The notes under the pieces: model-generated | What the model was told of the DNA's origin: nothing | The model's database searches: none | The model's input: only the letters and a program-made list of their open reading frames with translations | From: Candidatus Bathyarchaeota archaeon | Lineage (GTDB): Archaea; Thermoproteota; Bathyarchaeia; 40CM-2-53-6 | Assembly (NCBI GenBank): GCA_963726255.1 | Contig: CAVSBL010000002.1 | Location: forward strand, 608,001 to 672,000 | Direction: 5' to 3' | Length of the DNA: 64,000 nucleotides | Shown here: positions 54,893-62,892 of the stretch, piece by piece | Numbering within the stretch: position 1 is the first letter of the stretch | Layout of the letters: each line of letters begins with the position of its first letter | Program-made: the position numbers and the translations under genes

Positions 54893-54970
54893 GGGCGGGT
54901 AGCCTAGCCTGGATAGGGCACAGGCCTCCGGAGCCTGAGGTCGGGGGTTCGAATCCCTCCCCGCCCGCCA
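54893..54970 (+). tRNA. tRNA-Arg(CCG), CCA encoded, intronless
   Basis: GGGCGGG/CCCGCCC acceptor, CAGGC-CTCCGGA-GCCTG anticodon arm, GGTTCGAATCC. Confidence 0.95.
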
Positions 54971-59335: not shown

Positions 59336-59483
59336 TGGAGCCGGGGATGGGAATTGAACCCACCTCAGCGATTCTCGCTTTCTATACTGCGGGTTGCGGC
59401 AAGCTTTAGTCTACTGCAGCCCGCCGCCTGGACCGTTCGGCCTTCGGTGGCCATAGGCATCAAACCCAAAGACCAACCCCGGC
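59336..59483 (-). tRNA. tRNA-Cys(GCA) with three introns (8/9, 37/38, 48/49)
   Basis: Exons 59483-59476, 59442-59414, 59394-59384 and 59363-59336 join to a 76-nt cloverleaf with GCA anticodon, U73 and CCA. Confidence 0.9.
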
Positions 59484-59561
59484 ATTTTCCCCGGCGAATG
59501 AACCGTTCACGCACATAGCTCTAATAAACCTGCACGTAAAGCTGTAATTCGCCGATGGTTC

Positions 59562-59891
59562 TTGAGTCATGTGATGTCGATGGTTGATTCGCAAGAAGAC
59601 CAGGTGCCGCTGTTCTTCAAGTTATGTTCGGATCACCTTTCAATTGAAGCCATCCCAAGAAAAGCTCTTACTATCAACATCGAAGGCATGAAGGATAAGT
59701 CGATCCGCGAGCACGAAGTGATGATGTGGACTCCCCATTTTGTTGTGCTGAAGAATTCGAGCGGACAGGAGATTACTCTTAGGCGAGATGGGCGAATGGT
59801 AGTAAGAAAAGCGGATACAGAACAGGTTGCGCGAGAGGCCGCCACGAACGTTATGCATTTAGCCTTGAAAGAGTTCGGAAGCCGAGCCTAG
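59562..59891 (+). CDS. Stand-alone homolog of the MoeB/E1 C-terminal domain
   Basis: KLC...P.K.L.I...HEV...TP..VV....GQEITL.RDGRM aligns with the C-terminus of 60584..61618. Confidence 0.75.
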   Translation: MSHVMSMVDSQEDQVPLFFKLCSDHLSIEAIPRKALTINIEGMKDKSIREHEVMMWTPHFVVLKNSSGQEITLRRDGRMVVRKADTEQVAREAATNVMHLALKEFGSRA

Positions 59892-60577
59892 ACGGTCAGA
59901 ACACGAGCGGACTGAACGGCCCTTGCAACCATGCCGTCAATGTCCAATGCCGTTTCGACCTCGGCTAGTCGGTTCCTCCTGGCTGAGGTGCTTGGGTTGT
60001 CTGTTGGAACTCCGCAGCTAGCGACCCCTGGGCGGATTGAAACTTCATAAGTACCAATTTCAATTGCGAACTTCACGATTTGCTGCTTGTTCATTCCGAC
60101 AAGTGGCCTAAGCACCTGAACCTTATTCAGCACACAGTCTGCCGCTACGATGTTTTGGAGCGTTTGGCTGGCCTTCTGCCCGACAGCGTCACCTGTGACA
60201 ATTGCGTTACACCCCTCCCGGTCGGCTATTCCTTCGGCAACTCTAAACATGATCCGCCTGGAAAGCATGCACGCGAACTTCGCCGGACACTTGGACAAAA
60301 TAACTTGGAGGTCAGGCGCGTGAGAGACAACGTATACGCGTGCCCCCTGAAGTTTTGCTCGCTCGCACAGCCTGCGAACAGTTTCTATGGCAAGGCTTTC
60401 GGCTGCTTGGTCGCAGAGTGGGTAATTATCGAAATAAACGAAAACCGGTTCTACGCCTTTCCTCATCAATAACCATGCTGCGACTGGGGAATCGATACCG
60501 CCGGAAATGAGGCACACGGCTCTCCCGGAAAGTCTGAGTTCCGGGGATTCTATTGTTTGTGGAGACTGTAGCGACAG
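59888..60577 (-). CDS. thiI: ThiI-family PP-loop sulfurtransferase domain without THUMP; probable CTG start
   Basis: SGRAVCLISGGIDSPVA, GDAVGQKASQT, RPLVGMNK, IGTYEVS. Confidence 0.82.
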   Translation of the reverse strand: MSLQSPQTIESPELRLSGRAVCLISGGIDSPVAAWLLMRKGVEPVFVYFDNYPLCDQAAESLAIETVRRLCERAKLQGARVYVVSHAPDLQVILSKCPAKFACMLSRRIMFRVAEGIADREGCNAIVTGDAVGQKASQTLQNIVAADCVLNKVQVLRPLVGMNKQQIVKFAIEIGTYEVSIRPGVASCGVPTDNPSTSARRNRLAEVETALDIDGMVARAVQSARVLTV

Positions 60578-60583
60578 TTTCTT

Positions 60584-61618
60584 TCACCCTTCACCGACCA
60601 GCTTGGCGACCTCGGCTGAAATTGCGAGTGCCTCTATCTCGTTTCGTACGTTCTTGATCAGCATCCGCCCTTTCCTAAATAGACTTACTTCATGCCCACT
60701 GAAGTCGAAGACGATAACCATTGGCGTCGTCAATAATACCCTGTGGTTTCGCCCGATAGTTCTAGCCAGTTGGTCCAGGTCAACGGATAATGGCTTCTCC
60801 GGGTTGACATTCGCAGTCTCTGATCCGCACAACCAGGCCAACTTACGAGAATAGTTTGGTGTAGTAGTCAGCTTTGCCTGGCAGACTCCACAGTCAGCAC
60901 GGATGCTCAACCTCACTGTTCGATATTCAGACTGCGCGAAATCGAATATCAGCAGTCTTCCCATCGATTGGGGGTCGATTCCCGCAAGCGCCTTCACTGC
61001 CTCCATCGCCTGAATAGCTCCAACAATTCCAGTGGTAGCACCCAGCACACCGCGAGTATCGCAAGTTGGCAGGTCCACGTCGTTCAGACCCGGCAAGATA
61101 CACTCTAAACATGGGGTTTCAGGGCTCTTGAATACTGCTACGTTCCCTTCCATCCCGATTGCCCCCCCAAAGACGAACGGTGTCTTCCTCGTCACGCAAA
61201 AACGGTTGATAATGTACCGCGTTTCCATGTTGTCAAGCCCATCCACAACGCAATCTGCTCCATCTAAGATCGCCGGGACGTTCTCGGCATTCAAGTTCTC
61301 TGGGACGGGATTGACTTCAACCTCAGGATTGATCATACCAATTCTGCGTGCAGCAGCTTCTACCTTCGGATACCTGATATCGCCTAGCGAATAGAGAACC
61401 TGCCTGTGCAAATTGTTTACTTCTACAGTATCTTGATCTATGAGCGTTAGTTTTCCGACACCTGCGAGCGCAAGGTAGAGCGCTGAAACACTTCCCAAGC
61501 CACCTAATCCCACAACGGCAACTTTCGAGTCATGCAGTTTCTTTTGGCCGCTCGAACCGAGTTCCTTCAGAACCAATTGCCGACTGAAGAACTCATCTCT
61601 GTCGAAATCTGCGTGCAT
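60584..61618 (-). CDS. MoeB/ThiF/UbaA E1-like adenylyltransferase with extra C-terminal domain
   Basis: FSRQ, VGLGGLG, NNLHRQ, DGLDN, CLEC, catalytic TC, CGVC. Confidence 0.92.
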   Translation of the reverse strand: MHADFDRDEFFSRQLVLKELGSSGQKKLHDSKVAVVGLGGLGSVSALYLALAGVGKLTLIDQDTVEVNNLHRQVLYSLGDIRYPKVEAAARRIGMINPEVEVNPVPENLNAENVPAILDGADCVVDGLDNMETRYIINRFCVTRKTPFVFGGAIGMEGNVAVFKSPETPCLECILPGLNDVDLPTCDTRGVLGATTGIVGAIQAMEAVKALAGIDPQSMGRLLIFDFAQSEYRTVRLSIRADCGVCQAKLTTTPNYSRKLAWLCGSETANVNPEKPLSVDLDQLARTIGRNHRVLLTTPMVIVFDFSGHEVSLFRKGRMLIKNVRNEIEALAISAEVAKLVGEG

Positions 61619-61671
61619 CTGTTGCTCACGCCAAAATATGGCAACGCGGGCTTTCAGTGTATAGGCGCGTT

Positions 61672-62892
61672 TCAAGAATAGAAGGGTAGTCCTAGCTTGG
61701 CAAGCCTGTATTTGAAGTACGGCCACGCCAATTTGGCTCGCACGTCCCGATACCGTAACGACCCATCCATCAATCCCACCATGCACTCCTGCACTTTCCG
61801 TTCTGAGAAGAAGAATTTGGCAACTCGTTCCATGTCATATTGCTCCAAGTAGCTGAAACAGGCAACACGGCATGCAACATCGAAATCGATCCCGAAGGCC
61901 TTTCGGCAACGTCGACCGTAACGGCCGAGAAAGCCCTTATCAAACCGACCCTTTTGGCATGCTTCTTCGGCTGTTTGTGCCGCGATCTGTCCACCCAATA
62001 TCGCGAAATAAATGCCCTCCCCGAGAAGGGGCTCGGCAAATCCGCCTGAATCGCCAGCGAGCAGAATCCTATTAGTAGCCAAAGGCACTTTGGCAATGCC
62101 GCCAAGCGGAATCAAATGAGCTTGTGGCCTCGGAACTTTTCGCCCACGCAGCTGAGGGATTTGCTTCACAAACCCATCGAACAGAGCGTGCGCATCACGA
62201 AGCCTGCTCAGGCGGCAACCCACCCCGACCGTCAGATGGTTGTCCTTTGGGAAAACCCAGCCGTACCCGGCAGCGGAGACGCCGAAGTATATGTCAAAAT
62301 AAGATTCGGGGCCAACGAAATCCTGTACACCTGTCTCTCCAACAGGAACTTCGCTTTCGATAGCGTAGGCGACTTCGTGGGGTTTCCACCGATCATAGAG
62401 CTGCCCATAACCTGCGGTTGGGCCACCCATCCCATCAGCACCGATAATCAGCCTTCCTTCAAATGAGCCATGGGAAGTTTTCACTTGAATATGAGAGTCG
62501 TTTGTTTCAATTCGCTGTGCAGGAGTTCCATCTTTGAGTTCTGCGCCAGCCTCCACAGCCTTGTCGGCTAAGAATGAGTCCAACCTGGTGCGAGAAGTCA
62601 TATAGACAAGCGTGCGGTCCGATTCGAAGTTGAAGCAATCTTCGTCGACATGAATTCGTGTCGACCTGGCAGTATATTCGATGAGTTCGTCAGGTAGGCT
62701 GAAGCCGAGTAATTTGATGACCTTAGGAGTAACGCCCCCGCCGCACAATTTGCTTCGCGGCAGCTTATCTTTCTCGAGTAGGAGAGTTTTCAGTCCGAGT
62801 TGGGCAGCGGTCCTCGCGGCTGAAGCACCTGCAGGCCCTGCTCCGACAACGATCAGGTCGTACAAGCGAATCTTTGCTCGACGCTGTAACAT
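61672..62892 (-). CDS. Geranylgeranyl reductase family flavoprotein
   Basis: VVGAGPAG, KLCGGG, IGADG, GYGWVFPK, LAGDSGG...GEGIYFA; start uncertain (62892 or TTG 62865). Confidence 0.9.
   Translation of the reverse strand: MLQRRAKIRLYDLIVVGAGPAGASAARTAAQLGLKTLLLEKDKLPRSKLCGGGVTPKVIKLLGFSLPDELIEYTARSTRIHVDEDCFNFESDRTLVYMTSRTRLDSFLADKAVEAGAELKDGTPAQRIETNDSHIQVKTSHGSFEGRLIIGADGMGGPTAGYGQLYDRWKPHEVAYAIESEVPVGETGVQDFVGPESYFDIYFGVSAAGYGWVFPKDNHLTVGVGCRLSRLRDAHALFDGFVKQIPQLRGRKVPRPQAHLIPLGGIAKVPLATNRILLAGDSGGFAEPLLGEGIYFAILGGQIAAQTAEEACQKGRFDKGFLGRYGRRCRKAFGIDFDVACRVACFSYLEQYDMERVAKFFFSERKVQECMVGLMDGSLRYRDVRAKLAWPYFKYRLAKLGLPFYS

Follow-up and report, generated by a model that had tools for sequence, protein, structure and literature searches.

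Three introns within a single tRNA gene and an ordered formation of their BHB motifs have been established for Thermoproteales in the passages cited here (PMC8450103, PMC4390854, PMC3218864), with tRNA-Glu(UUC) of Pyrobaculum calidifontis and tRNA-Pro(UGG) of P. islandicum as examples (PMC4390854, PMC8450103, PMC3218864). Non-canonical and multiple introns have been linked to a two-subunit EndA in the relevant parts of PMC4090602 and PMC4033280, and a Crenarchaea-specific loop of EndA, together with residue K44, is described in the cited part of PMC3488258. Sequences outside the tRNA can also take part in building an endonuclease substrate, as in the split and permuted tRNA genes of Nanoarchaeum, Caldivirga and Staphylothermus, where, according to the passages cited, the leaders of two transcripts pair with each other beside the BHB (PMC3218864, PMC4390854).

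The tRNA-Cys(GCA) gene described here shares with the Thermoproteales genes, as these are portrayed in the cited passages, up to three BHB introns per gene, some of them canonical in position and others non-canonical, a two-subunit EndA, and BHBs some of which clash with the cloverleaf or with each other. It differs from them in its lineage, the Bathyarchaeia, and in a conserved leader copy of the acceptor strand which accompanies the intron at 8/9. This leader resembles those of split and permuted genes in being a conserved outside sequence that would pair to build the endonuclease substrate, but, unlike them, it repeats the strand of an exon, and its partner in the predicted fold is the 3′ acceptor strand, at a distance from the BHB. 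The nucleomorph gene for tRNA-Cys(GCA) of Guillardia theta is of the same isoacceptor and also has three introns; it is, however, eukaryotic and of an unrelated lineage, and in the cited part of PMC4090602 its introns are described as very short and their mechanism as unknown.

The original prediction, made from the DNA letters, had assigned multi-intron tRNAs mainly to Thermoproteales. Three-intron genes are indeed established there, but the present host belongs to the Bathyarchaeia, and our literature search found no description of tRNA introns in that group. Positions 8/9 and 48/49 had further been held not to be among the common sites, and neither is named in the cited list of non-canonical positions in a review, a list that is open-ended and closes with “etc.” (PMC4090602). 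The gene is a real and conserved three-intron tRNA-Cys gene; it extends a known kind of gene to another lineage and to positions that appear to be new. The leader copy is the most interesting feature of the locus.

A tRNA-Cys gene in four exons

The gene covers 148 nt (59483-59336) on the minus strand of the window, i.e., of the whole 64,000-nt stretch of DNA that was analysed, and consists of exons of 8, 29, 11 and 28 nt separated by introns of 33, 19 and 20 nt. Exon 1 (59476..59483) comprises tRNA positions 1-8 and is joined directly to exon 2 in nine distinct relatives without intron 1. Exon 2 (59414..59442) holds positions 9-37 with the D arm, the 5′ anticodon stem and the anticodon GCA, exon 3 (59384..59394) positions 38-48, and exon 4 (59336..59363) positions 49-76 with the T arm, the 3′ acceptor strand, U73 and an encoded CCA. 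Intron 1 (59475-59443) interrupts the gene at 8/9, and its BHB uses positions 1-6 and 10-11, while intron 2 (59413-59395) lies at the canonical 37/38 site and intron 3 (59383-59364) at 48/49, its BHB pairing 38-42 with 50-54; all of these features are on the minus strand. A splice register shifted by one, to 9/10, was rejected because of its poor BHB.

Joining the exons by these coordinates yields a 76-nt RNA with a 7-bp G+C-rich acceptor stem and the encoded CCA, which ARAGORN calls as tRNA-Cys(gca). Splicing in script and the ARAGORN call reproduced base for base the triple-intron gene that had been proposed, including U73 in the spliced product, where it is the T directly 3′ of the acceptor strand. 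The U73 discriminator is an identity element for CysRS, and it is kept in all distinct orthologs parsed. The unspliced gene obtained neither a call by ARAGORN nor a match to the Rfam tRNA model, and the suspicion that standard callers may miss it was thus borne out for both. When ARAGORN was run in intron mode on the whole genome it returned many spurious long-intron calls, including a false tRNA-Gly that borrowed the 3′ end of the tRNA-Cys gene; these were discarded.

A check for another tRNA-Cys had been suggested along with the prediction. Neither the 17 Rfam hits nor the 35 ARAGORN calls of the whole genome include one, and BLAST gave no second match beyond T-arm fragments. When a GCA anticodon arm, a T arm and a fitting acceptor strand were searched for together under relaxed criteria, 12 hits were obtained, only this locus being tRNA-like, with all these scans blind to split genes and to introns in the T loop or anticodon arm. 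The locus is very probably a functional tRNA-Cys(GCA) gene with three protein-spliced (BHB) introns, and the only recognisable one in the genome.

The three junctions can be read directly from relatives. A 221-nt region was searched by BLAST against 60 relatives, and in an alignment of the best 20 homologous loci the exons are almost invariant and every indel falls inside one of the three introns. Scanning the public genome collection for the pattern yielded 44 stretches, at least 35 of which hold a tRNA-Cys gene by parsing (one of the 44, on an actinobacterial contig, is a chance match), and 20 further loci from the same order were added to the junction comparison. The same three introns are present in the tRNA-Cys gene of 25 distinct sequences from relatives. 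Among the orthologs the intron sets {1}, {2}, {1,2}, {2,3} and {1,2,3} were seen, and wherever an intron is absent the junction is contiguous. Intron 1 alone is found in six distinct sequences of Bathyarchaeia and in four from Candidatus Terraquivivens; nine distinct relatives have no intron 1, six have neither intron 2 nor intron 3, and some lack intron 3 only. The contiguous DNA reads GCCGGGGT-GGCCGA at 8/9, CTGCAG-A at 37/38 and AGTAT-GTGGG at 48/49, just as expected for introns placed at these positions. The predicted A15-U48 pair, the Levitt pair that spans the 48/49 junction, covaries among the orthologs, being A15/U48 in most and U15/A48 in eight distinct sequences from another genus, which fits a tertiary 15-48 pair and the 48/49 junction given above.

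In L071, L074 and L076 (families f6 and f2) the 3′ acceptor strand of tRNA-Cys is ACCCGGC against GCCGGGG, giving a G7.A66 mismatch, and the leader copy of L071 reads GCCGGGA. L052 and L064 are on contigs in bacterial bins (Acidoferrum, Methylomirabilota), and their tRNA-Cys is identical to that of the Bathyarchaeia genomes G010 and G005; these contigs are probably mis-binned archaeal DNA.

BHB motifs and the splicing machinery of the host

All three introns fit the geometry of two 3-nt bulges on either side of a 4-bp helix, the predicted cuts following the second nucleotide of a bulge; introns 1 and 2 do so in a relaxed form. BHB1 has an outer helix of 2 bp (G1, C2 with G10, C11), a central helix with three of four pairs formed and an inner helix of 4 bp. 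BHB2 is the canonical anticodon-arm motif and likewise has three of four central pairs. In BHB3 an outer helix of 5-6 bp (A38-G42 with U50-U54) and an inner helix of 2 bp flank the central helix CAGU/GCUG, which is paired at all four positions, two of the pairs being G-U. A clean BHB at 48/49 and one central-helix mismatch in each of the other two motifs had been foreseen, and the mismatches are G6.A for intron 1 and U33.C for intron 2. The imperfect BHB1 and BHB2 are similar to the relaxed (hBH, HBh') introns cut by the crenarchaeal (alpha-beta)2 EndA, as described in the cited part of PMC3488258.

Base pairs of the motifs were counted in 35 distinct sequences anchored at their splice sites. 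The second inner pair of BHB1 is G-C in 23, A-U in nine and G-U in three of these, and the G6.A mismatch in the central helix is invariant (35/35). The first inner pair of BHB3 is G-C in 18 and C-G in seven sequences, and the base opposite U33 in BHB2 is C in 15, A in eight and G in two of 25 sequences. Double-sided changes affect two pairs of the BHB1 inner helix and two pairs in the central and inner helices of BHB3; BHB2 has them at inner pair 1 and at pair 27-43 of the anticodon stem, and its remaining changes are one-sided. The length of intron 1 ranges from 16 to 33 nt among relatives.

The 3′ part of intron 2 (59396..59405, minus strand) is complementary to positions 24-33, so that it mimics the anticodon stem's 3′ strand, and forms a 10-bp helix with them in the minimum free energy (MFE) fold. 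Pairs 27-31 of this helix are kept in 22-25 of 25 sequences, and six sequences show a double change from G27-C to A27-U. In an alignment of the 25 distinct three-intron sequences, which are kin, so that the following pairing and covariation figures overstate their independence, the pairing of a combined structure, which comprises BHB1, BHB3 and the helices of the leader and of intron 2, amounts to 95.7%, vs. 26-48% when the partners are slid, and that of BHB2 to 89.8%, vs. 22-62%. The combined structure has two-sided changes in five pairs (27 cells), and none of 500 shuffles reached its covariation score. The fit of the BHB pairing far exceeds chance.

The genome encodes two EndA paralogs, located in G000:C2 near 748279-748530 and 1451759-1451998, and the typing of EndA that had been called for points to a crenarchaeal-type enzyme. 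The alpha subunit (188 aa) has the catalytic Tyr, His and Lys (IYEH..DHAPF..VRK) and matches TIGR00324 with 90.9 bits; its best solved relatives are the crenarchaeal chains 3p1z_B, 3ajv_B, 2cv8_A and 2zyz_B (E 8e-41 to 4e-28), and the alignment with the Aeropyrum chain 3p1z_B spans the specificity loop and places a Lys opposite K44. The beta-like paralog (187 aa) lacks the catalytic His at the aligned site and has weak matches to beta subunits. Judged from sequence, EndA is of the two-subunit (alpha-beta)2 type. Like the crenarchaeal enzyme it would combine a catalytic and a structural subunit, with the alpha chain aligning to Aeropyrum, Sulfolobus and Pyrobaculum through the loop with its Lys kept; unlike it, the beta chain is only distantly similar to solved beta chains. 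RtcB (571 bits), RNase P RNA (173.6 bits) and CysRS (388 bits) were identified in the same genome.

A second match to the CysRS catalytic domain (334 bits; G000:C2:1783878-1784762, minus strand) adjoins the main one of 388 bits. Directly upstream of the tRNA-Cys gene and on the same strand, the window contains genes for a ThiI-domain PP-loop protein (PF02568, 175 bits; 59888-60517, minus strand) and a ThiF-family protein (256 bits; 60584-61786, minus strand). Enzymes of the ThiI type introduce 4-thiouridine at position 8 of tRNAs, and the junction of intron 1 lies at this very base; the vicinity of the ThiI gene may be a coincidence.

Interrupted genes seem to be the norm in this host. Only 17 tRNA genes score above the Rfam tRNA threshold in the 2.42 Mb genome (51% G+C), and the intron-free ARAGORN calls are just two, Arg-CCG (window 54893-54970) and Asp-GTC, so that nearly every tRNA gene appears to be interrupted, many of them more than once.

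A copy of the acceptor strand in the leader

A second GCCGGGG (59495-59489, minus strand), identical to the 5′ acceptor strand and probably a placeholder for pairing with the 3′ acceptor strand, begins 12 nt upstream of the mature 5′ end, from which it is separated by the spacer AAAAT (59484..59488, minus strand). A TATA-like box, TTTATTAG (59521..59528, minus strand), is found 33 nt upstream of the copy and is a putative promoter element, kept in relatives as TTTATTAGAG or a variant of it. The distance from the TATA-like hexamer to the leader copy is mostly 28-33 nt, and in genes without intron 1 the mature 5′ end follows the hexamer at 31-33 nt (three genes with a box in range); the spacing to the copy suggests that the transcript probably begins at or just before it.

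All 41 distinct tRNA-Cys genes that contain the 8/9 intron have the copy, vs. none of the nine that do not, counts which come from related genomes and are hence not independent. When 46 distinct tRNA-Cys loci were compared over a 30-nt leader and the gene (37 with intron 1 and nine without), all 37 intron-1 loci had the copy, 36 of them exactly, and again none of the nine. The four Terraquivivens sequences, from another class, have both the 8/9 intron and the leader copy. Over 43 distinct leaders the entropy is 0 bits at each of positions 1-6 of the copy and 0.16 at position 7, vs. 1.3-1.9 bits for the 12 bases upstream and mostly 1.1-1.8 bits, with a single conserved base at 0.43, for the spacer, which varies from 4 to 13 nt in length. 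L020 and L081, of genus g3, have a longer upstream copy of 10 nt, GCCGGGGTGG, which equals mature positions 1-10 across the 8/9 junction and is followed by a 10-nt spacer; it resembles an original, uninterrupted 5′ end left behind. Our literature search found no published description of a leader element that assists BHB formation, and the element appears to be undescribed in print.

Leader copies also occur at other tRNA genes of the source genome. A T-arm scan gave 29 tRNA genes, and brute-force BHB removal followed by ARAGORN recovered the tRNA-Cys solution and was noisy elsewhere, so that its output served only as leads to other 8/9 introns, which were then checked by eye. Four of the 29 genes have an 8/9 intron, three of these with a copy of their own acceptor strand in the leader (GCCGGGG, GCCGCCG and GCGGGG). 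Among the 25 genes without an 8/9 intron no exact 6-mer copy of the acceptor strand was found, the single look-alike being G-U-tolerant, overlapping and at -6. The gene for tRNA-Asn(GUU) (G000:C2:1127728-1127880, plus strand) has an 8/9 intron, further introns and the copy GCCGCCG 20 nt upstream; throughout the order the roughly 28 distinct loci all retain this copy, two of them with six of seven bases.

Two class II tRNA genes of the source genome, G000:C2:1670790-1670979 (minus strand) and G000:C2:2253994-2254130 (plus strand), have the same acceptor stem, and both have 8/9 introns. In the leader of the former, the copy GCGGGG precedes a small hairpin that is conserved; the latter has no copy, and its conserved leader CCTGG could pair with CCAGG of the D loop. 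In the class II group as a whole the copy is present in 13 of 16 genes with the 8/9 intron, vs. none of nine without it. The three exceptions are of a paralogous type, one of them in the source genome, and indicate that the element is common and not obligatory. In the class II ortholog L125 (G017:C1, near 989666-989794) the 8/9 intron has been precisely lost with the same leader kept, and the former copy, originally GCGGGGTA, is now GCGGGAAA, one case of a copy decaying once its intron was lost.

A survey of the tRNA-Cys 8/9 motif covered 400 evenly sampled genomes of the class and the source genome, and found it in 49. It is present in 46 of the 58 genomes from the family of the window, and in one of six and one of two genomes from two other families of the order. 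None of the other orders sampled had it, absence in incomplete MAGs being no proof. Together with its presence in Terraquivivens, which belongs to another class, this makes the distribution patchy.

The probable role of the leader copy and alternative explanations

The MFE fold of the precursor has an 8-bp helix between the leader copy and the 3′ acceptor strand; when the leader is removed, the true acceptor stem forms. The cost of forcing BHB1 in this precursor falls from 17.4 to 9.0 kcal/mol once the leader is included, and the median over 25 orthologs from 16.4 to 8.3 kcal/mol; the leader copy is thus predicted to halve the cost of BHB1 formation, and it probably helps the excision of intron 1. 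The acceptor stem is invariant within each tRNA family, and the helix between leader and 3′ strand therefore shows no covariation. In the nearest-neighbour model all forced BHBs are less stable than the MFE fold by 4-14 kcal/mol, so that the enzyme or other factors must select such conformers. The outer helix of BHB1, of just 2 bp, and its invariant central G.A also count against the pathway proposed below.

The sequence of events could be as follows. Transcription would start about 30 nt downstream of the TATA-like box, at or just before the leader copy GCCGGGG, which would occupy the 3′ acceptor strand of the precursor. The true 5′ strand (positions 1-6), thus free, could then give BHB1 with G10-C11 and the 3′ end of intron 1 as its partners, and BHB3 would be built from positions 38-46 with the end of intron 3 and positions 50-54. 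The two-subunit (alpha-beta)2-type EndA would cut each motif and RtcB would join the exons, after which the true acceptor stem could form and RNase P would remove the 12-nt leader. We infer from this arrangement that the leader copy acts as a placeholder while the real 5′ strand is presented to EndA.

Ordered splicing had also been deduced in the original prediction from BHBs that conflict with the cloverleaf. The conflicts themselves are real: BHB2 and BHB3 exclude each other, since both use nucleotides 39-43, and neither BHB1 nor BHB3 can form together with the cloverleaf. A firm order does not follow from the nearest-neighbour energies, however, since BHB3 costs about 4 and BHB2 about 11-13 kcal/mol in every splicing intermediate, and no order of removal can be derived from costs that stay the same. 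The intron-2 helix could serve to release nucleotides 39-43 for BHB3; this mimic lowers the cost of BHB3 by only about 1-1.6 kcal/mol and raises that of BHB2.

The co-occurrence of copy and intron might also have arisen if the leader copy were a functionless relic of the insertion of intron 1, the original exon 1 having stayed at the site set by the promoter and a second copy having arrived with the intron. We consider this unlikely, although several observations agree with it: the copy lies 28-33 nt from the TATA-like hexamer, close to the 31-33 nt that separate the hexamer from the mature 5′ end where intron 1 is absent; the upstream copy of L020 and L081 spans 10 nt and matches mature positions 1-10 across the splice junction; and copy and intron are always together in tRNA-Cys, as predicted by a single insertion event, so that one joint arrival would account for the co-occurrence without any function. 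A relic should decay neutrally, whereas positions 1-6 of the copy have zero entropy in 43 leaders between flanks of mostly 1.1-1.9 bits, and the copy is unchanged where the intron loops can no longer be aligned. It is also kept in two archaeal classes, and it began to decay in the sole class II ortholog that has lost the intron. An origin as a relic and a present function are in any case compatible. It is very improbable, in our view, that the upstream copy is itself the real exon 1, with GCCGGGG-N joined straight to exon 2 or with a 7/8 mini-intron that removes the spacer and the downstream copy. The upstream copy could make the same central and outer BHB1 pairs, it is located at the probable transcript start, and the palindrome CCGG allows a 4-bp helix between the two copies in tRNA-Cys, but such a 7/8 helix is impossible with the tRNA-Asn copy GCCGCCG. 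The base after the copy is moreover A in 21, G in 15, C in four and T in three of the 43 leaders, whereas the downstream copy is always followed by T, as the nearly universal U8 requires, and the covarying inner helix of BHB1 adjoins the downstream copy only.

That the locus is a decaying tRNA pseudogene, with cysteine decoded by a split, permuted or unassembled tRNA gene, seems extremely improbable to us. The failure of standard callers on this gene, the state of the assembly (five contigs, 98.5% completeness) and the blindness of our scans to a split gene or to one with a T-loop intron would be compatible with it; in 46 distinct sequences from several families, however, the introns diverge and the exons hardly vary, the identity elements GCA and U73 are retained, the BHB helices show compensatory changes, and the genome scans gave no other tRNA-Cys candidate. 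Returning to the leader copy as a placeholder in a functional gene, we tentatively suggest, as a possibility and not as a settled view, that copy and 8/9 intron form one heritable module, that the copy is the original exon 1 kept as a cis-acting placeholder, and that the intron-2 mimic is a second placeholder, for intron 3.

How the endonuclease motif forms against a very stable acceptor stem is, to our knowledge, unexplained. The locus offers a clean and testable answer in the form of a conserved spare strand that comes and goes with the intron from genome to genome, and it suits an in vitro test of RNA-assisted substrate presentation to EndA. The leader-copy module could also improve tRNA gene finders. 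Since the Rfam model recognises only 17 tRNA genes in this genome, tRNAs will be listed as missing in routine annotation, which may mislead on decoding capacity or genome completeness. Bathyarchaeia, which are abundant in soils and sediments, join the lineages with heavily interrupted tRNA genes. If the proposal of a heritable module with placeholders is true, strand-mimicking helpers would be a general and so far undescribed rule for archaeal introns whose BHB competes with the cloverleaf, and the patchy spread over one family, two stray genera and another class would point to a joint mobility of intron and helper.
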